Origin: Candidatus Saccharimonadota bacterium
Lineage (GTDB): Bacteria; Patescibacteriota; Saccharimonadia; Saccharimonadales; Saccharimonadaceae
NCBI GenBank assembly: GCA_017511965.1
Contig: JAFWHT010000012.1
Coordinates: 1,596-65,595, forward strand
Reading direction: 5' to 3'
DNA: 64,000 bases
Part shown: one piece after another, positions 5,264 to 64,000 of the stretch
Position numbering within the stretch: position 1 is the first letter of the stretch
How the letters are laid out: every line of letters begins with the position of its first letter
Notes under the pieces: generated by a model
What the model was told of the DNA's origin: nothing
The model's input: the letters and a program-made list of their open reading frames with translations, nothing else
Database searches by the model: none
Made by a program: the position numbers and the translations under genes

Positions 5264-6316
5264 TTACATAGTCGGATGACGTCCAGTATGTTTTTTGCCG
5301 TCATAGATAGTAGTCGGGATACCTTTAACATGTAACTCTTTTTCGATAATCTCGCGATTTTCGTTCATCTTGTCGGTAATTTCTGGATAATCTACTATCT
5401 TGCGAAGCTCTGCCAAACCATCCTTATCAAACCCATCTGCCACAATCCATTCCTCTAGTTTTTCTGACGCCTCTTCGCGTGAATAATCTTCATTAAACAC
5501 GTTTTGATACAAAACTCCATCTTCATTTTTTTCGGTAAACAGCCTATCTAATATATTTACTGCCATTCCCGAACGTAGTTGTTCGATCGCGAGCATATAG
5601 CGCACGATAATTTCTGAGTTTTTAAACTTATAATTTCCACTCGAATCCGCAATCGCAAACGGCACCAACCTTACCTCATAATTATCAAAAAATCCTGTCT
5701 CTTTTTGATTTTGATATGAGCTCATACATACAAAACAGCCTGGATCAAAAATATCTATCGCAACCGGCTTGTCTGCCCCCTCGTTTGGATTCATTACAAT
5801 ATAATTTAAATCAAAATCTTCTGCCTTGTAACTACGAAACTTATCTGGAATTGCCTCAAAAATCTCGCCCCATTCCGTAAACCATCGCCCCGTCGCTTCA
5901 AGTGGACCTTTCGGTGCGCTTTCGTCAATTGAGCAAACTTCCGCTCCGAGCGTACAAGCTTCTGGCTTTGTTACGTTGCAAGTCCCAAGCGCCCAGAGTG
6001 CGAGCAGGGATTTTATTGACGTCAAAATTGCCCAAACTGCTACAATTACGATAACTACCGAAATAATCTCAACCATTACCGACAACGGTTTTACCCATTT
6101 TGGATGTTTTATAATTACACGGCTAAGGAGTGTATTTTTTACATCTTCTTTAAAACCAGTTTCGCATTTTTGCAGACGTACTTTTTTCCATAAGCACCCC
6201 CAAGCCTTCTTAAATATCTTTGTGTAAGCCTTCCAAACTTTTGGCTTAAAAATTGACACGACCCCCACAAAAACCCCCATCACTGCTAAAATAATAAAAG
6301 CTGCAATACAAACCAT
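5264..6316 (-). CDS. Membrane-anchored DsbA-like thioredoxin-fold oxidoreductase
   Basis: CxxC (PGCFVC) plus a cis-Pro-type loop (VKGIPTT) in the C-terminal domain. The N-terminal part has 2 TM helices and extra Cys pairs (CLWKKVRLQKC; CNVTKPEACTLGAEVC). Start moved to ATG 6316, preceded by TGcTATAAT 6 nt upstream. The track start at 6415 would overlap the divergent gene. Confidence 0.55.
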   Translation of the reverse strand: MVCIAAFIILAVMGVFVGVVSIFKPKVWKAYTKIFKKAWGCLWKKVRLQKCETGFKEDVKNTLLSRVIIKHPKWVKPLSVMVEIISVVIVIVAVWAILTSIKSLLALWALGTCNVTKPEACTLGAEVCSIDESAPKGPLEATGRWFTEWGEIFEAIPDKFRSYKAEDFDLNYIVMNPNEGADKPVAIDIFDPGCFVCMSSYQNQKETGFFDNYEVRLVPFAIADSSGNYKFKNSEIIVRYMLAIEQLRSGMAVNILDRLFTEKNEDGVLYQNVFNEDYSREEASEKLEEWIVADGFDKDGLAELRKIVDYPEITDKMNENREIIEKELHVKGIPTTIYDGKKHTGRHPTM

Positions 6317-33867: not shown

Positions 33868-35802
33868 TTACATGATCCCGCCCGTCCAAGGATTACGTTT
33901 TGCTCCGCCATTGTTTTGATTTGTGGAGCCATTAGAGCTATTGGATCCACTAGGACCATTGCCACTCGAGCCACTCGAGCTAGTAGAGCCTCCCCCAGCT
34001 CCCGTAGAACCACCCGTAGTTCCTTGTGGCGGCAGATTTCTTCCTTGATATTCCTCCCGCACCGCTAGCTGTGATCCCTCTGCGATATCACCCAGATTAT
34101 ACGCACTAGCATTATTGTGCAATCCGCTGAGTCGCGCATCGCTCACGTGCTTGACCAATTCCTTTACCTCGCTTGTAGATTGCGTCATAAAGTCCTTATC
34201 TTTATCAAGCACCTTACGCGCGATATTTTGGACGACAGTTGTGCCATCAACTTGTCTTCCAGCAGTTTGTTCGCTCTGCATCCAGTTAGCCTGATCTTGT
34301 CTCATTTCTGCATGATTAGCAAACGTAGCTTTTCGCCCAGCCGCCGCTTCTTCGCGCCGATGGGTCAAATAATCATTATTCATAGCATCATATTGCTCTT
34401 GCGTCGTATCGGCAGAAATCGCACCCGAAGCAATATCAGAAAGCCTCGAAGAAGTTCGGCGACTCTTACTATCCATCGCATTCTTTACTGCATTATTCTT
34501 CGCCATCGCTTCACCCATTAACTCTGCCGATGTGCCAGTTCTTCCTTCGCTCGCCTTAGCGATTTGCTTTGCGCCCCCCATCATACCAGATAATTGCGAA
34601 GTTAGAGCGTCGATCTTCCTTAGCTCGCCAGCATTTAATGTCTCTCCTTGATCTACTCTATTTAGAAGACCACTCAACTGATTCCCCATAATATCAACGT
34701 TGTAATTTCCGGTCTCTTCACGCATCGCCATTTTGGTTGCTTCGATATCCTCAGCTGCACCTCGTTCAGCTAACGATTGATTTCTCGCAAAGCCTCTTTC
34801 TCCTCCCGAAATCCAAGCGCGGAATCGCTGTCTTCCACTCGCAGTGCCAGCCCGTACTGCCTTATAGGCATCGGCATTTCTTTTTGCTCGGCCAAGCATA
34901 GCTGTTCTCTCTGCATCTTTATAAATTGCCGAATTCTGTACGACTCCCTCTGCTTGCCTTAAACCACTCTTGACATTAGCGCCAATTCTCTGTAGATAAC
35001 CACCCATCTCGCCAAATACCGCCAACGCTTTTTCAAGAATCTTCGGCGCTGCCGCTAGTGGCAAGAATATCATTACTATTGCCACTATTGCTAGTCCCGG
35101 ATTATCACCATTAGCACTCGATATCGCAAGTAGTCGCATTATCCTTGAAGCTGCCAAAATCGCCGCACAAACCGGATAAACCATCAAAATAATTTTAAAA
35201 GCATCAAACCATTTTTTATAAATTTGTTGAGTATTCGGCAAAATATAGCAAAGCATTGCTAGTGGTGCTACTGCTACCAAAAGCGCCGCAAGTAGTTGTC
35301 GAAGCCCTACCATCAAGAAGAATATAATCACCGAAACCAACGCATAAAGAGCCAAGAAAATTATCGGAATCAACCAAAACATCCCGCCAACCGTAAGTGC
35401 TGCAGCTATTGATCCAGCTACTGCTCCCCCTGCCGAAGCAACTCCAAAAAGTGAAGCAAATATCGCTCCAAAAGTTAGCGCAGAGCCATCGACTCCAGTT
35501 TGACTTTGTACACTATAATAAGCATCACGTGCAGCAGCTATAATTCCTTTTCCGATAATGTTTGACAAATCTACTGCTACCTGGCAAATTAAATAAGACA
35601 GATTAATCAAAATTGCCACAATAATCAACTTCGGCAACATTTTCTTGATACCATAGTTATCAATTCCAAACCCAGTTAATTGTGAGAAAATAATTGCCAG
35701 TAGAATAACAATCATCCCAGCATTGGCGAAAGTCATTAGATTTTGCCAAATCAAAAATGTGGCACTGCCGTCTCCAAAAAGGTTAGCTTCTAACTGAAAC
35801 AT
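33868..35802 (-). CDS. Polytopic membrane protein, VirB6/TrbL-like (tentative), with long hydrophilic C-terminal domain and G/S/N-rich tail
   Basis: 644 aa. Residues 1-260 carry about 6 TM helices (LPKLIIVAILINLSYLICQVAVDLSNIIG...), followed by about 380 aa of soluble sequence ending GTTGGSTGAGGGSTSSSGSSGNGPSGSNSSNGSTNQNN. Assignment rests on architecture and recollection, not on a search. Confidence 0.45.
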   Translation of the reverse strand: MFQLEANLFGDGSATFLIWQNLMTFANAGMIVILLAIIFSQLTGFGIDNYGIKKMLPKLIIVAILINLSYLICQVAVDLSNIIGKGIIAAARDAYYSVQSQTGVDGSALTFGAIFASLFGVASAGGAVAGSIAAALTVGGMFWLIPIIFLALYALVSVIIFFLMVGLRQLLAALLVAVAPLAMLCYILPNTQQIYKKWFDAFKIILMVYPVCAAILAASRIMRLLAISSANGDNPGLAIVAIVMIFLPLAAAPKILEKALAVFGEMGGYLQRIGANVKSGLRQAEGVVQNSAIYKDAERTAMLGRAKRNADAYKAVRAGTASGRQRFRAWISGGERGFARNQSLAERGAAEDIEATKMAMREETGNYNVDIMGNQLSGLLNRVDQGETLNAGELRKIDALTSQLSGMMGGAKQIAKASEGRTGTSAELMGEAMAKNNAVKNAMDSKSRRTSSRLSDIASGAISADTTQEQYDAMNNDYLTHRREEAAAGRKATFANHAEMRQDQANWMQSEQTAGRQVDGTTVVQNIARKVLDKDKDFMTQSTSEVKELVKHVSDARLSGLHNNASAYNLGDIAEGSQLAVREEYQGRNLPPQGTTGGSTGAGGGSTSSSGSSGNGPSGSNSSNGSTNQNNGGAKRNPWTGGIM

Positions 35803-36077
35803 TATTCAAAAAACTCCTCTATTTTAGTACTTAATGCATCCACCGCCCCCGCGAGCGTTCGGATTACCGGGCAAACCACCCAGCCCAAACTTACAGATTT
35901 TTTACATTCCTCAATAAATTCCTCTTTATCTAGTACATAAGAATCGCTTGCAAAAGAACCACTCCTCCCACCGTGCTGTCTGCTGTCGTCTTCTGCATTT
36001 GCAATCTGTCCTACCAAAAACAGCGAACTAATCATTATAACTGCTACTATTATTAATTTTAGCTTTTTTCTTCTCAT
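35802..36077 (-). CDS. Small secreted protein (91 aa) carrying the shared WVVCP...LAGAVD...FFE C-terminal module
   Basis: Signal peptide MRRKKLKLIIVAVIMISSLFLVGQIANA. ATGA overlap with the upstream gene and TAATG overlap with the downstream gene. Confidence 0.65.
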   Translation of the reverse strand: MRRKKLKLIIVAVIMISSLFLVGQIANAEDDSRQHGGRSGSFASDSYVLDKEEFIEECKKSVSLGWVVCPVIRTLAGAVDALSTKIEEFFE

Positions 36078-58674: not shown

Positions 58675-58899
58675 TTAATCTCTGAGTCGGAAACTGATTC
58701 TGCCCTTTGTAAGATCGTAGGGGGTTAACTCAACTTCGACTCTGTCGCCCGGGACCAAACGAATGTAGTTTTTTCGCATTCGCCCGCTCATATGAGCGAC
58801 AATAATATGACCATTCTCGAGTTCCACTCGAAACTGAGTATTAGGCAACGCCTCAACAACGCTACCCGTGAGTTTAATCACTTCCTTTTGACTAGCCAT
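58675..58899 (-). CDS. infA: Translation initiation factor IF-1
   Basis: 74 aa with an S1-like fold sequence: [66 protein letters not shown]. Confidence 0.95.
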
Positions 58900-58912: not shown

Positions 58913-58941
58913 AGTATAGCACATAAATCAAGCCTTGTAAA
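58913..58941 (-). promoter_or_regulatory. Sigma70-type promoter for infA-rpmJ-rpsM... (TTTACA-17-TATACT)
   Basis: Minus strand: TTTACAaggcttgatttatgtgcTATACTgGGAGGgtaatttATG. Confidence 0.55.
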
Positions 58942-58966: not shown

Positions 58967-61900
58967 TTACCGCGCCACGCAACGGATATTGTGACCAAAA
59001 GCGATATTTGAGGAATAAGAATCATTATAGCTTGCGTTATGGTTGAAATAATAGGCCGTATTAAATACATACATCGGGCCTCCGGCGGTTGAGGACCAGT
59101 AAGAGCCGGCATCACCGACACCCTGTAATTCGCTACCCTGATCAATCGCCCCACCTCGTGTAAAGTAAAGCGGTGAGGCAATCAGTCCAGAATCAGTAGA
59201 ATTTACGCCGTTATTATACAACCGGTTTAGCTCCTTAAACTCGTCAACATGGCCTGTAATTTCATTGGCGATAATCGGCAATCGCCAACCTTTCGGACAA
59301 ATTGAGGTCTGCGGATTTTGCGAAGGGTCGGTTTCTGTGCCATTAGAATACGCACCGGAATCGTTTACTGCTAGCGCGGCGGTCCAGTTGTAATAGTTCC
59401 CTATTCTACTATGGCGATTAGTTGAGCCATCCCAATAAGCCTCACCCGGATCGGCCGAAGCAAGGCCATTATCACCAAACGCACCAACCCAGCCCGCAAC
59501 GCTCTCACCAACATTCAAGCCTTGGATGTTGATAGTTGAAACATCTGGAGTCCAGTCGCTAGAAATATCCGTATCGGCCGGGGTGTAAGTCTTCGTCGCG
59601 TCGATATCGTGGTCTAGGTTTTCGATCATCCAGCAGTTGCCGTCTTTGAGTTTCGCCACCGAATAAGTTTTGCCATCACGCGTGTCTTTTAGGACCGCCT
59701 CGGTCCCAACCGGCGTAGCCGAGCAAATACCCGGAGTCATTTCTTGCATGGTAGAAATTTGTTCGAGTGGGGTAGGTTCGGCCCATTGGGCGTAAAGGGT
59801 GATGGTTTCGCCTTTACCGACGAGGTCGGTAACTTCTTGTTCGTTAGCATAGGAGTCGCCGGTGCCGTCGTTTTTAGTATTCCACCCGGTAAAGACCTTG
59901 GGGTTATTCGTAAATGTATTAGCGGAGAGTTTAGTCGCAACATCGGTATAAATAGTTTGGTCGGGCATATCACCGGAGCCACCATTGGCGTCAAATTTTA
60001 CCGTATAGTTTTCTCTCGCAATGCAACGCACCGCCGTACCAGAAGATTTTGCATAGTTACTGGTGCCTGGATACAATCGTTTGAGCGCGGGATTTAACGT
60101 AAAAATATATGCAGCGTTTTCGTTTGCGGCAGTAGATGTGTAAAGCATAGTATAAGCACTATTTTTCTCACTATTAGTCTGCCAGTCGCCATTTTCATGA
60201 AAATTGTTGGGGTAATCCCTAAGGGCATCCATGGCAGTTTTGCCCGATACGTTAGTTTCGGTACCTTGATAATAGAAATTATTTTGTGGAGCAAAACCCA
60301 TAATACTCAAACTTAGTTGCCAATAATCGCTATTTGTCGCATTGGCTACACCTCCACCTTTTGGTAGGCGCCATCCAGCTGGACAAATAGAGCCAGAAAC
60401 ACTAGTATTATTAGTGGTTATAGCACTAGTGCCATTTCCAGCGGTAGCCGAATACCAGTTATAATAATTACCGCGGGAATAGATTTTAGCAGTGCCACCG
60501 CCCCAAACCGTTATCGGATTTGCTGTATTGCTCGTATTGAGTTTCGATTGATCATAACAGTGTACGCCGAGCTGAGCATCATTTGAGAGACACCAGTCAT
60601 CCGAAGTGGGCGAAAGGTGGTTTGATGTAGTACCATTATAGACATTTACAAGTGGGAGGATAGGATTATCAGTATTTTCGCGAGTAATCTCCGCCGAATC
60701 ATCCAAACGAAGATTTTCGATTGTCCAACATTTATTATCAGCAAGTTTAGCGACAGCATAAACTTCATTATCGCGAATGTCAGTTAAGGCGGTAACATCA
60801 CCAATATTCATGCTATTGCAGCCATTCCAGTTTTGTAAGTTCCCAGCCGAAGGGATCCAATTTGCATAAAGATACAGACCTTTTATATGAATATCAGGAA
60901 GGTCAACAACCTCATTTGGGCCATAACTTATGCCAGTGCCATCGGCTTTAGTGTTCCAACCGGCAAAACCATAACCTTCACGTTGGAAATTTGAAACTCT
61001 TAGCATTACACTAGTCGTATTAACTACGACGCCCTGATCAGACATCGTGGTGGGTGAATTCTCTGCGCCGTTGCTATCGTAATGGATGAGATATCTTGGA
61101 TAGCCCCATTGGGCGTAAAGGGTGATCGTTTCGCCGGCGGTGGTGAGGTCGGTGACCTCTTGTTCGTTGGTGTAGGAATCGCCGGTGCCGTCGGGCTTAG
61201 TGTTCCAGCCCACAAAAGGCTCGGTATTAGTAAAAGTATTAGCAGAAAGCTTAGTCGCAATACCGACTTGGATGGATTGGTCCGCCATATCACCAGAGCC
61301 ACCATTAGCGTCAAAAGAAACCGTGTAGCGCTCATCAACAACGCATCGCGCTGGCATTCCGGTAAATTTACTAGCCGAAGAAGTCCCCGGATTAACCGAC
61401 TTACTAAAGCTTACCATACCAAAATTATAGGCATTGCCATATTCTGAGTAAAACGTAGAAGTCCAGAAACTCCCAATAGTACTACGATTATTTGGACTAT
61501 CCTTTTCATACCTGCCAGAGTAAACAAAATTGTTTGGGTATTTTGTCATAATTTTAATTAATTCCTCTCCTTCGTTGAGGTAGATTGGTTGATCTGTATT
61601 ATCGTAATTACTTGGCTGGACGCCATTATTAAAGTGGTTCACAATTAGATCCCAGACATCGTTATTGGTCTGGTTATTTTTATCTCCGCCTCTTGGTAAA
61701 CGCCAACCAGCTGGACAGATTGAGATGCTAGAAAGCGACACATTTCGAATCAGTACTTTGTCCACGTTAGCGACTATCGCTGTCCAAGTATAATAATTTC
61801 CTAGTGAATAAATATTTTCCGTGCCGGTCCACGAAGTCAAAGTTTCAACTGCGTTAGCGGTATTGATATTATTGTAGCGTGGCATTTGCGTATTATTATT

Positions 61901-64000
61901 GTTTACATCCGCAGCCGAATACAATGAGTTCGACGCCGTAGAATAATCAAAGTTAGAAGATTCTGGCTCCGCAAGACCGATAAAACCAGTTCCGTAGCCT
62001 TGCGACAGAGCAACATCTTCTGCGCTGGTGGTATACTGATTATCAAGACGTAGGTTTTCAGTCATCCAACATTTACCGTCGGCGAGTTTAGCGACGGCAT
62101 AAGTCTGGTTGTCGCGTTTGTCGGTAAGGGCCGTAACATCGCCAATATTCATGGTAGCACAACCATCCCAACTTTGGATATCACCAGCCGATTTTATCCA
62201 AGTCGCGTAAAGAGCCAGGCCGTCTGTTTTGATATTATTTATAGTAGTATCGTCAAAGATTGTTTCATTTGGGCCATACATAGTTCCGGTGCCGTCAGCC
62301 TTAGTGTTCCAGCCAGCAAATCCATAACCAGAGCGCTGGAAGTTCGACGGCCAAAGCAGCGCGCTAGTATCAGAATCACCAACCGATTGTTTACCCATGC
62401 TGGTCGGGCTATTAGCGGCACCGTTCTTATCGTAGCAAATATTGCCGGGCGGACAGCCCCATTGGGCGTAAAGGGTGATGGATTGGCCGGCGGTGGTAAG
62501 GTTAGTAACCTCTTGTTCGTTAGCATAAGAAGTGCCAGTGCCATCTGGTTTCGTGTTCCAGCCGAGAAATACTTGCCAAGCCTCTGGCGCGGTGAAGGTG
62601 GCGGGGTTTAGAGTGGTGGAGGTGTTGCGATAGATGGCTTGGTCGGGCATAGTGCCAGTGCCGCCGTTTTTGTCAAAGGTGATGGTGTAGTAGTCGGAGC
62701 GGGCGATGCAGCGGATGGTTTCGCCGTTGTATTTAGTATCATGAGCATCGCCTGGCAATATTCTACTACTACCGGTGTCAATAAGGAGATTAAAACCGTA
62801 ACTTTCGCCATAAAGTGTTCGAGTCCAATAAACTGCGCCTGAACCACGATAACTATACCTTGAAGTGTAATATCCGCCCGAATAGACAAAATTATTAGGA
62901 TAAGAGCGCCAACGATTAAAGACTGCGGAAGAAACATTTTGATTGCTACCTGTGCCACCGATTGACACATCTAGAGCACCGAAACTGCCAGACGAAGTAG
63001 TGTTGCCAAGAGGTAGCGTCCAGCCCCTCGGACAGATGGAAGTAGAAACACTACCAGAGGAATAAGCACTGGTAGAGCCAATAGCGGCCGGCCAAGTATA
63101 ATAGACACCGTAAGAGTAAATATTAGCATTAGTGCCGGTCATATTGGCAACGGTATTTAATTTGTTAATAGCGTTTTGACGGATGGAGTTAATAGTGTTG
63201 TATGAATTTGAGAATGAAGTAGTGGAAGCTGGGAATGTGAGGTTGGCGTTAATAGAAGTATCGTTTGGAGTAAGGGTGATTGTAGTGTTAGAACCGAGAC
63301 GCAAATTTTCAATCATCCAACAATTGCCGTCGGGGAGTTTGGCGACAGTGTAGGCTTCGCCATCGCGAGTGTCTAGGAGCGCGGTGACGGAGGAGAGATT
63401 GGCAGTGACGGTGCCGTTTAAATAGGTGGCCTGGGTTAGTTTCGGGCAGCCGGTCCAGTTTTGGATGGTGTCTTTGGCCTCAATCCAGACGGCGTAGAGT
63501 TTTTTGCCTTTGGTGGTAAGATCGCCAGTTTGAGCGGCGGCGAGGGTTTGCTGTGGGCCGTAGATAATGTCGGTGGTGGTGGGGGTGGGGGTTTCGGCCC
63601 AGCCAGCGAAACCGTAGCCTTTGCGCTGGAAGTTGGTCGGCCAGAGAGTTGTGGCGGTGTTGGACGATGCGGATTGGTTGTCCATGGTAGTGGGGGAGCT
63701 GGCGCCGTTGTCAAAGTAGCAGATTTTGCTAGCGGGGCAGTTCCATTGGGCGTAGAGAGTGATGTTTTGGTTGGAGCCGGAGAGGGTAACTTCTTGTTCA
63801 TCGGTGTAGTGGGTGCCGGAGCCGTCGGGCTGGGTGTTCCAGCCGATGAAGCCGTCTTGGTCATTGCTGGATGTATAGGTGTTTTTAGTGAGGGTGGTGG
63901 GGGTGTTTTCGGTGATTTGTTGGGTAGGCATCTGGGCGCCGGAGCCGCCGTTAGGGTCAAAGGAGATATTATAGTAATTAACGCAGGTTGGGCTAGTTGT
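58967..64000 (-). CDS. Giant modular surface-type protein (>1677 aa, N-terminus beyond window): alternating Listeria-Bacteroides (Flg_new) repeats and Fibrobacter-type paralogous (FISUMP) domains
   Basis: The frame stays open from 63931 to 64000: TTSPTCVNYYNISFDPNGGSGAQ precedes the track's M and is itself a repeat start. Flg_new-type units: Y(T/N)(V/I)xFDxNGG(S/T)G...GWNTKxDGTG..Y...LYAQW. FISUMP-type units: L(T/K)D.RD...Y.VAKL.D..CWM.ENL...GNYY.W.A...ICP.GWRLP...W(S/T)ST...RC(V/I). Confidence 0.8.
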   Translation of the reverse strand, partial: TTSPTCVNYYNISFDPNGGSGAQMPTQQITENTPTTLTKNTYTSSNDQDGFIGWNTQPDGSGTHYTDEQEVTLSGSNQNITLYAQWNCPASKICYFDNGASSPTTMDNQSASSNTATTLWPTNFQRKGYGFAGWAETPTPTTTDIIYGPQQTLAAAQTGDLTTKGKKLYAVWIEAKDTIQNWTGCPKLTQATYLNGTVTANLSSVTALLDTRDGEAYTVAKLPDGNCWMIENLRLGSNTTITLTPNDTSINANLTFPASTTSFSNSYNTINSIRQNAINKLNTVANMTGTNANIYSYGVYYTWPAAIGSTSAYSSGSVSTSICPRGWTLPLGNTTSSGSFGALDVSIGGTGSNQNVSSAVFNRWRSYPNNFVYSGGYYTSRYSYRGSGAVYWTRTLYGESYGFNLLIDTGSSRILPGDAHDTKYNGETIRCIARSDYYTITFDKNGGTGTMPDQAIYRNTSTTLNPATFTAPEAWQVFLGWNTKPDGTGTSYANEQEVTNLTTAGQSITLYAQWGCPPGNICYDKNGAANSPTSMGKQSVGDSDTSALLWPSNFQRSGYGFAGWNTKADGTGTMYGPNETIFDDTTINNIKTDGLALYATWIKSAGDIQSWDGCATMNIGDVTALTDKRDNQTYAVAKLADGKCWMTENLRLDNQYTTSAEDVALSQGYGTGFIGLAEPESSNFDYSTASNSLYSAADVNNNNTQMPRYNNINTANAVETLTSWTGTENIYSLGNYYTWTAIVANVDKVLIRNVSLSSISICPAGWRLPRGGDKNNQTNNDVWDLIVNHFNNGVQPSNYDNTDQPIYLNEGEELIKIMTKYPNNFVYSGRYEKDSPNNRSTIGSFWTSTFYSEYGNAYNFGMVSFSKSVNPGTSSASKFTGMPARCVVDERYTVSFDANGGSGDMADQSIQVGIATKLSANTFTNTEPFVGWNTKPDGTGDSYTNEQEVTDLTTAGETITLYAQWGYPRYLIHYDSNGAENSPTTMSDQGVVVNTTSVMLRVSNFQREGYGFAGWNTKADGTGISYGPNEVVDLPDIHIKGLYLYANWIPSAGNLQNWNGCNSMNIGDVTALTDIRDNEVYAVAKLADNKCWTIENLRLDDSAEITRENTDNPILPLVNVYNGTTSNHLSPTSDDWCLSNDAQLGVHCYDQSKLNTSNTANPITVWGGGTAKIYSRGNYYNWYSATAGNGTSAITTNNTSVSGSICPAGWRLPKGGGVANATNSDYWQLSLSIMGFAPQNNFYYQGTETNVSGKTAMDALRDYPNNFHENGDWQTNSEKNSAYTMLYTSTAANENAAYIFTLNPALKRLYPGTSNYAKSSGTAVRCIARENYTVKFDANGGSGDMPDQTIYTDVATKLSANTFTNNPKVFTGWNTKNDGTGDSYANEQEVTDLVGKGETITLYAQWAEPTPLEQISTMQEMTPGICSATPVGTEAVLKDTRDGKTYSVAKLKDGNCWMIENLDHDIDATKTYTPADTDISSDWTPDVSTINIQGLNVGESVAGWVGAFGDNGLASADPGEAYWDGSTNRHSRIGNYYNWTAALAVNDSGAYSNGTETDPSQNPQTSICPKGWRLPIIANEITGHVDEFKELNRLYNNGVNSTDSGLIASPLYFTRGGAIDQGSELQGVGDAGSYWSSTAGGPMYVFNTAYYFNHNASYNDSYSSNIAFGHNIRCVAR
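58970..59782 (-). repeat. FISUMP-like domain copy 4, C-terminal (aa ~1384-1654)
   Basis: LKDTRDGKTYSVAKLKDGNCWMIENL...IGNYYNWTAA...ICPKGWRLP...YWSST...IRCVAR, then the stop. Confidence 0.65.
60014..60844 (-). repeat. FISUMP-like domain copy 3 (aa ~1030-1306)
   Basis: LTDIRDNEVYAVAKLADNKCWTIENLRL...RGNYYNWYSA...ICPAGWRLPKGG...VRCIAR. Confidence 0.65.
61337..62185 (-). repeat. FISUMP-like domain copy 2 (aa ~583-865)
   Basis: LTDKRDNQTYAVAKLADGKCWMTENLRL...LGNYYTWTA...ICPAGWRLPRGG...FWTST...ARCVV. Confidence 0.65.
62699..63469 (-). repeat. FISUMP-like domain copy 1 (aa ~155-411 of track numbering)
   Basis: LDTRDGEAYTVAKLPDGNCWMIENLRL...YGVYYTWPAA...SICPRGWTLP...YWTRT...IRCIAR. Confidence 0.65.

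Follow-up and report, generated by a model that had tools for sequence, protein, structure and literature searches.

A giant composite FISUMP-domain gene upstream of infA in a gut Saccharibacterium and the probable multivalent binding protein that it encodes

The giant gene and its modular product

We analysed a 64,000-nt stretch of DNA (hereafter the window; C29:1596-65595 in the coordinates of its contig) from an assembly of 695,404 bp in 39 contigs (97% complete, contigs of ~42% GC). The organism is a gut Saccharibacterium, a member of the Candidate Phyla Radiation whose relatives are named Ca. Nanosyncoccus. At the end of the window, on the minus strand and upstream of infA, lies a single very large gene (the giant gene). 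The best explanation of its product, which we hold with fairly good confidence, is a Sec-exported, tetravalent, lectin-like binding protein of the cell surface or the extracellular space, probably a multivalent adhesin. It would be an adhesin of known kind and no new system. The gene belongs to a family restricted to the genus, of which it is the largest member, fixed and composite; ordinary members of this family are diversified by diversity-generating retroelements (DGRs).

The open reading frame (ORF) is uninterrupted from its stop codon at 58967 to the window edge (1677 codons), and a previous inspection of these letters, the sequence-only reading, had concluded that the protein continues beyond them. 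This is indeed the case: the frame extends 528 nt past the edge; it begins with an ATG, in front of which stands the ribosome-binding site AGAGAGG, and its full length is 1853 aa. This protein (labelled P0002) is already in NCBI nr, from the same contig. The 176 codons outside the window encode a signal peptide and most of an N-terminal domain (N-domain). The extension of the contig that had been proposed as a check thus supplied both the N-terminus with its signal peptide and the upstream neighbour, a sortase gene. The gene and its parts are as follows (C3, C at third codon positions; own-segment profile, a profile built from the protein's own segments).

58967..64000, minus strand: giant gene, codons 177-1853 and stop (first 176 codons at C29:65596-66123)
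Residues 1-27, outside the window, minus strand: signal peptide
Residues 28-184, minus strand: N-domain, family-specific, all-beta, 157 aa
63977..64000, minus strand: last 8 residues of the N-domain, the rest of which lies beyond the window
63743..63976, minus strand, residues 185-262: A1, Flg_new repeat (C3 = 0.65)
63485..63742, minus strand, residues 263-348: B1, Flg_new-like repeat with the Cys pair NCPASKIC (C3 = 0.63)
62696..63484, minus strand, residues 349-611: F1, FISUMP domain of subtype I (TIGR02145, 50.2 bits)
62459..62695, minus strand, residues 612-690: A2, Flg_new repeat (own-segment profile and 21-mer)
62198..62458, minus strand, residues 691-777: B2, Flg_new repeat (PF09479, 31.9 bits)
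61331..62197, minus strand, residues 778-1066: F2, FISUMP domain of subtype I (TIGR02145, 58.1 bits)
61106..61330, minus strand, residues 1067-1141: A3, Flg_new repeat (own-segment profile and 21-mer)
60857..61105, minus strand, residues 1142-1224: B3, Flg_new repeat (PF09479, 36.8 bits)
60011..60856, minus strand, residues 1225-1506: F3, FISUMP domain of subtype I (TIGR02145, 44.2 bits)
59783..60010, minus strand, residues 1507-1582: A4, Flg_new repeat (own-segment profile and 21-mer)
58970..59782, minus strand, residues 1583-1853: F4, FISUMP domain of subtype II, ending in ...GHNIRCVAR-stop (TIGR02145, 50.4 bits)

The layout is therefore a signal peptide, the N-domain, three [Flg_new-Flg_new-FISUMP] modules and a terminal [Flg_new-FISUMP] module. 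The sequence-only reading had given exactly this module order, and its assignment of the repeats to Flg_new and of the larger domains to FISUMP was upheld by profile searches. PF09479 (Flg_new) matched the whole protein in seven stretches with 155.6 bits against a cut-off of 27 (E 3.5e-46); on lone B repeats it scored B2 and B3 above the cut-off and B1, at 20.4 bits, under it. TIGR02145 (FISUMP) reached 160 bits on the whole protein (E 9e-47), and each of the four domains taken singly passed its cut-off of 41.65 bits. The scores of PF09603 on F1, F2, F3 and F4 were borderline (31.1, 33.8, 34.0 and 27.9 bits, cut-off 33.9); all 17 FISUMP domains of the family that were tested match this profile. 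The FISUMP domains of the giant protein have ~270 aa for a profile of 176 positions, with inserts of roughly 100 aa each, and conserved Cys residues occur in all four. Searches of Pfam and NCBIfam found no catalytic domain in the protein.

The modules recur at the DNA level as well. Each A-type repeat closes with the 21-mer CCATTGGGCGTAAAGGGTGAT (ITLYAQW). Perfect copies lie at 59783, 61106 and 62459 and a copy with 2 mismatches at 63743, whereas chance would produce none. Its recurrence, including the diverged fourth copy, had been noticed before, with the two middle sites placed one position off. In the comparison of the gene with itself that had been suggested, the repeats are 60-82% identical with a period of 1320-1353 nt, and internal repeats are detectable in the protein at E 1e-16 to 1e-54. 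Sibling modules are only 28-39% identical, which agrees with the divergence that had been noted.

A genus-restricted family with diversity-generating retroelements

Profiles built from the N, A/B and F segments of the giant protein and run over the genome recovered a family of 28 ORF pieces covering 38 kb, or 5.5% of the 695-kb genome. For Saccharibacteria, which have minimal genomes and a life spent attached to other bacteria, this is a large share to devote to one family of lectin-like surface proteins. A standard complete member has ~600 aa and consists of a signal peptide, the N-domain, one Flg_new repeat and one FISUMP domain. Family pieces contain 20 of the 78 contig ends, and it is chiefly the FISUMP family that fragments this assembly. 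The contig of the window itself begins with a family fragment (C29:2-961), which lies immediately ahead of the window.

Some paralogs are targets of DGRs, in which a variable region (VR) is paired with a template repeat (TR) and a reverse transcriptase (RT) gene. On contig C8 (C8:33088-37289), a 567-aa target has its VR at 34608-34826 and the TR at 35720-35938, which is adjoined by a 451-aa RT ORF on the opposite strand; the two 219-nt repeats differ at 14 positions, 12 of them template adenines. On contig C7 (C7:3832-7040), a 632-aa target has its VR at 5543-5756 and the TR at 6061-6274, with 15 of 15 mismatches at template adenines and an adjoining RT ORF interrupted by two stop codons. The template on C8 additionally matches gene tips on contigs C36 (20 of 21 mismatches at A, 95%) and C4 (14 of 18, 78%). 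Paralogs on these four contigs thus show what marks a DGR target, namely a template repeat with mismatches mainly at its adenines. Upstream of each RT there is an ORF of 252-260 aa with a poly-Pro start and no Pfam match.

The giant protein is clearly related to these targets. Compared with the DGR target T7, it is 35% identical in the N-domain and 44-50% in the Flg_new repeats, and its F4 is 33% identical to the FISUMP domain (E 1e-41). F4 shows the same 33% identity to both DGR targets (E 1e-45 and 1e-41), so that its homology to VR-bearing domains is established. The variable regions end in ...GLSLRCVAR and ...GFPVRCLAR, and the motif ...RC[VIL]AR also ends the four FISUMP domains of the giant protein. 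A cognate template was not found for the giant gene: neither TR aligns with any of its four tips beyond 8-43 nt, and sensitive blastn of each tip against the whole genome returned only the tip itself. Since no template repeat matches them, the four tips appear to be genetically fixed. Downstream of the giant stop codon, the sequence does not match what comes after the VR in either DGR target.

A maximum-likelihood tree of 30 FISUMP domains separated two subtypes with 100/99 support. F1, F2 and F3 belong to subtype I, together with a few other paralogs, and F4 to subtype II, together with all the DGR-target-like paralogs. The four domains of the giant protein formed one clade in 0% of the bootstrap trees, and F1 grouped as sister (99/89) of a domain from P0005, which belongs to another species. 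The two subtypes and the low identity between sibling modules indicate that the giant gene is not a recent tandem expansion. It is rather an assembly of old modules, equivalent to a T7-like N-A-F protein (subtype II) with three [A-B-F] modules (subtype I) in between. This tree also supports the idea, put forward in the sequence-only reading, that modules are shuffled.

Other species of the genus have multi-module relatives with 1195-2389 aa, and sampling of twelve other families of the order yielded no member of the family. Candidatus Saccharibacteria supply more than 2000 homologs (1000-3200 aa) under the automatic NCBI names 'InlB B-repeat-containing protein' and 'FISUMP domain-containing protein', and the best 80 loci in 185,579 species genomes all belong to gut Saccharibacteria or Nanosyncoccus. 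The best non-self identity of the giant protein is 35-55%, and no experimentally characterised homolog was found in the literature searched. The closest homolog, P0005 (2107 aa), has four FISUMP domains and seven Flg_new repeats, a different N-terminus and an extra C-terminal domain. Some homologs (P0113, P0118) carry a glycoside-hydrolase-type domain (PF00150).

The F4-type terminal module occurs in another gene context in another sample. A 1931-nt ENA scaffold (ERZ28653831 scaffold_118614) has a module 91% identical in DNA to F4, located after a subtype-I FISUMP domain and with a different downstream flank (not infA), with an N gap at the junction. Relative to this sequence, the F4 tip (the last 64 codons) has 9 nonsynonymous and 3 synonymous changed codons, against 15 and 31 in the rest of F4 (Fisher p = 0.018, from this single pairwise comparison). 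This suggests that evolution is fastest in the tip, which would therefore probably be the part of the domain that contacts the ligand.

Export, binding function and alternative explanations

The export of the giant protein, expected if it acts outside the cell, is supported by the N-terminus found beyond the window. Read by eye, MIKKIATVFSVFVGIFAGIFVADSAFA|YQ is a classical Sec signal peptide of cleavable type, with a basic n-region, a hydrophobic h-region and an AxA-type site (MIKK-IATVFSVFVGIFAGIFVA-DSAFA|YQ). The N-domain that follows had no family match in Pfam or NCBIfam, and its AlphaFold2 (AF2) model was poor (pLDDT 53). It is shared with the DGR target T7, and a profile search of 1.84 billion cluster representatives matched 474 proteins. 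Among the matches listed, the N-domain starts within ~100 residues of the protein start, and many of these proteins also carry Flg_new repeats and FISUMP domains. The N-domain is the best candidate for a cell-attachment or assembly module.

Despite its neighbour, the giant protein does not look like a sortase substrate. It ends in ...AFGHNIRCVAR, and a regex scan detected no LPXTG-like C-terminal signal in it; the same scan detected canonical sorting signals in other ORFs of the genome (LPQTG on contig C12, VPNTG on C22 and C28). A partnership of the two genes in a sortase operon was rejected on two grounds: the sorting signal is missing from the giant protein, and genomes without the giant gene have the sortase at this site too. 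The adjacent sortase is a bystander, because the LPXTG signal is absent.

The proposed ligand-binding role rests on the FISUMP domains. The variable regions of Fib_succ_major/DUF1566/DUF823 proteins form DGR target category d, with VR class CLec2, whose prototype is the surface lipoprotein LdtA of Legionella pneumophila (Wu et al. 2018, PMC5758913). The sequence-only reading had related FISUMP to C-type-lectin-like folds; the CLec2 placement gives this link support in the literature, and the paralogs described above carry their DGR variable regions at the same C-terminal tip. By analogy, each FISUMP tip of the giant protein may be a C-type-lectin-like ligand-binding surface. The AF2 model of F4 (pLDDT 84.5, pTM 0.87) was used for structural searches with Foldseek. 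In the viral library BFVD the top matches were phage proteins annotated as FISUMP (E 1e-5), and in the PDB the C-terminal domain of Legionella Lcl (8q4e_A) ranked second and was, as a weak match, the most relevant one (probability 0.23, TM 0.42). Neither the whole protein nor the FISUMP profile matched anything in the PDB.

These elements can be combined in a simple scheme. The N-domain would hold the protein at the cell surface, by neither sortase nor lipid anchor, and the seven Flg_new repeats (of InlB B-repeat type) would serve as backbone and spacers holding four different tips along a stalk. Several surface ligands might then be bound at once, either on a host bacterium or on gut glycans. 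With its fixed tips, the giant protein would be the hard-wired counterpart to the single-tip paralogs diversified by DGRs. The hypermutated members and the fixed tetravalent one make a natural pair for asking what ligands such epibionts recognise and how their recognition may combine variable and fixed parts.

Several observations weigh against this interpretation. The F4 model had no Foldseek match in the PDB at E <= 0.001 that would point to the C-type-lectin fold, neither a lipobox nor a type IV pilin signal that could anchor the protein was detected in it, and attachment to a host cell, also favoured by the sequence-only reading, is suggested by analogy.

The giant protein resembles three groups of known proteins. 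It shares with the DGR targets of category d/CLec2 (LdtA, PMC5758913) the Fib_succ_major/FISUMP domain family, an exported or surface-exposed location and a C-terminal tip with the same ...RCxAR-type constant residues, and its paralogs in the same genome are true targets. It differs from them in having four such domains instead of one, three of them internal, in lacking a matching template repeat and a lipoprotein signal, and in possessing Flg_new spacers and a family-specific N-domain. The Saccharibacterial 'InlB B-repeat' and 'FISUMP' proteins have the same PF09479 and PF09603 domains in alternating layout, the same lineage and habitat and, in many cases, the N-domain, whereas the number and order of modules and the genomic position vary. 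Finally, the seven repeats, each ending in LYAxW, match the InlB B-repeat/Flg_new stalks of Listeria and of other Gram-positive and Bacteroides surface proteins. In contrast with Listeria InlB, they alternate with lectin-like domains and do not follow a leucine-rich repeat domain, and the type B repeat (the second of a pair) is a diverged subtype with an added Cys pair.

Alternatively, the giant protein might be secreted for glycan binding or nutrient capture, using plant, mucin or microbial polysaccharides of the gut lumen for positioning or scavenging, and would then take no part in attachment to a host bacterium. The relatives all come from ruminant and other gut metagenomes, FISUMP is named after the rumen bacterium Fibrobacter succinogenes, two homologs carry the PF00150 domain and no cell anchor was found, all of which would agree with such a role. 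We nevertheless consider it unlikely: the giant protein has no catalytic domain, the N-domain conserved across the family suggests a common module for attachment or assembly, and DGR-diversified paralogs fit variable protein or cell-surface ligands better than invariant polysaccharides.

It might also be that the giant gene is itself diversified, now or until recently, either as a DGR target with its template in the unassembled 3% of the genome or as an acceptor or donor of sequence in recombination with paralog cassettes, in which case its tips would not be fixed. F4 is of the DGR-target subtype and has the C-terminal position of a variable region; its tip has an excess of nonsynonymous multi-nucleotide codon changes relative to the 91%-identical sequence, with A at the changed position of one variant in 8 of the 9 nonsynonymous codons, and that sequence shows an F4-like module in a different gene context. 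However, the genome is 97% complete and nothing in it resembles a template for any tip, no exact match to the gene elsewhere in the genome is longer than 20 nt, what follows the stop shows no match to what follows the VRs, the changes relative to the 91%-identical sequence are ordinary transitions and not adenine-specific, and the gene has the identical sequence in two assemblies of the population. Diversification of the giant gene itself is thus very improbable.

A more speculative extension of the adhesin interpretation would see in the giant protein a hard-wired archive of binding specificities. The DGR paralogs would explore ligand space, and successful FISUMP modules would be fixed and concatenated by shuffling; F4 would be a retired variable region, as its excess of multi-nucleotide nonsynonymous changes might suggest, and module 1, marked by its peculiar A/C-rich usage of C-ending codons, the segment most recently imported or rewritten. 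We regard this scenario as unlikely.

An artefactual origin of the four-module array, as a chimera or through mis-joining of paralogs during assembly, is hardly credible, even though contig ends within family genes show that paralogs do confuse the assembler: an independently assembled 84-kb ENA scaffold (L009) contains the identical 5562-nt gene in the same context, the frame is open over 1853 codons with regular domain boundaries, other species have multi-module relatives, and the longest exact repeat within the gene is 25 nt, short enough, like the 20-nt match elsewhere, for short reads to resolve an array whose repeats have diverged. The scaffold and the window contig are 99.98% identical over 8863 nt, and the two assemblies may share reads.

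Insertion site and codon usage

The ENA scaffold gives the gene order rpoB-rpoC-secY-sortase-giant gene-infA-(rpmJ)-rpsM-rpsK-rpsD-rpoA-rplQ-rplM-rpsI, with rpmJ read from the sequence. The window's contig ends within the sortase gene (C29:66197-66862) and secY is on a separate contig (C11:1-1578); the scaffold joins the two. A TGcTAAAAT-like sequence is a candidate promoter of the giant gene itself. Two elements follow downstream of the giant gene.

58913..58941, minus strand: infA promoter-like site TTTACA-17-TGcTATACT, kept in relatives without the giant gene; right edge of the insertion
58675..58899, minus strand: infA, next gene downstream, outside the feature (ORF and synteny in relatives)

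In species of the same genus the gap between secY and infA is 717-926 nt in nine genomes and 1652 nt in one. In one of them (G004) it corresponds to the sortase gene, whose stop codon is 50 nt before the infA start. Most other sampled families of the order have gaps of 155-183 nt, and one has 1213 nt. Alignment of empty and filled sites located the insertion between the sortase stop and the -35 hexamer of infA. The giant gene (5.6 kb) is a species-specific insertion: among the genomes compared, it lies between the sortase gene and the infA promoter only here. Its stop codon is 67 nt before the infA ATG, and the promoter-like site falls within those 67 nt. The sequence-only reading had taken this figure for the distance to the promoter, and had also expected the order secY-adk-map before infA. 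The latter expectation does not apply here, as secY stands directly by infA in the order and secY-sortase-infA is the arrangement in the genus. Neither adk nor map lies between secY and infA in any genome examined, and their absence from this locus is therefore typical of the lineage. A mobile cassette with shared ends was considered and found unsupported, the flanks having no significant match in the genome and no target-site duplication being seen.

The surrounding cluster has its own peculiarities in this genus. Directly after rpoC comes secY, 75 nt away here and 165 nt away in G004, and neither the S10/spc ribosomal-protein block nor adk-map lies between rpoC and infA. In the usual bacterial order, the S10/spc block and adk-map are found between these two genes. 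The gene of P0005 (L042:5034-12324, ENA ERZ28019015, from a related species) is located between rpoC and secY, preceded by an ORF6N-domain gene. This makes two independent insertions of giant genes of the family into the conserved rpoC-secY-sortase-infA cluster.

The 5′ modules of the giant gene stand out by their composition. GC is 0.57-0.59 at 63350-63950, 0.45-0.52 in the 3′ module and 0.42 in the contig, and the sequence-only reading was right that GC is higher at the 5′ end. What it had seen as GC-richness is a third-position preference for C over T, with no general rise in GC. The bias is strand-specific and spans the window from ~63270 to 64000 and beyond (codons ~150-400 or 150-420, depending on the measure), with C-ending codons replacing T-ending ones and G-ending codons avoided. 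C3 is 0.55-0.68 in codons ~150-400, with weaker peaks over the repeats A2-A4, and the FISUMP cores have a T3 of ~0.5; the C3 of A1 and B1 exceeds that of every 60-codon window in 286 other long ORFs. Wherever an amino acid can be encoded with either C or T at the third position, the ratio C/(C+T) lies at 0.60-1.00 in codons 150-420; elsewhere in the gene it is 0.23-0.57, and adjacent housekeeping genes have 0.00-0.50. Purine-ending codons remain A-ending in this segment (AAA 10, AAG 0).

Several readings of this segment were rejected. A foreign donor of the GC-rich module is contradicted by the lack of enrichment in G-ending codons and by the homologs, the best of which is Saccharibacterial (55% identical), like all of the best 80 loci. 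GC-biased gene conversion among the repeats would not raise C while leaving G unchanged. An overlapping antisense gene (a 216/223-aa ORF on the plus strand) was also discarded, as P0005, which is not biased, has equally long antisense ORFs.

The same bias affects annotation. The ENA gene call for the giant gene starts at Met463, and three antisense ORFs (113, 216 and 52 aa) are annotated over its 5′ third (L009:8582-9948, equivalent to window ~63230-64596, plus strand). These calls are a gene-calling artefact of the codon bias. The antisense frame looks coding because the third positions of the sense frame are its first positions, so that C3 bias makes it G1-rich. In practice, gene callers mis-annotate the giant gene.

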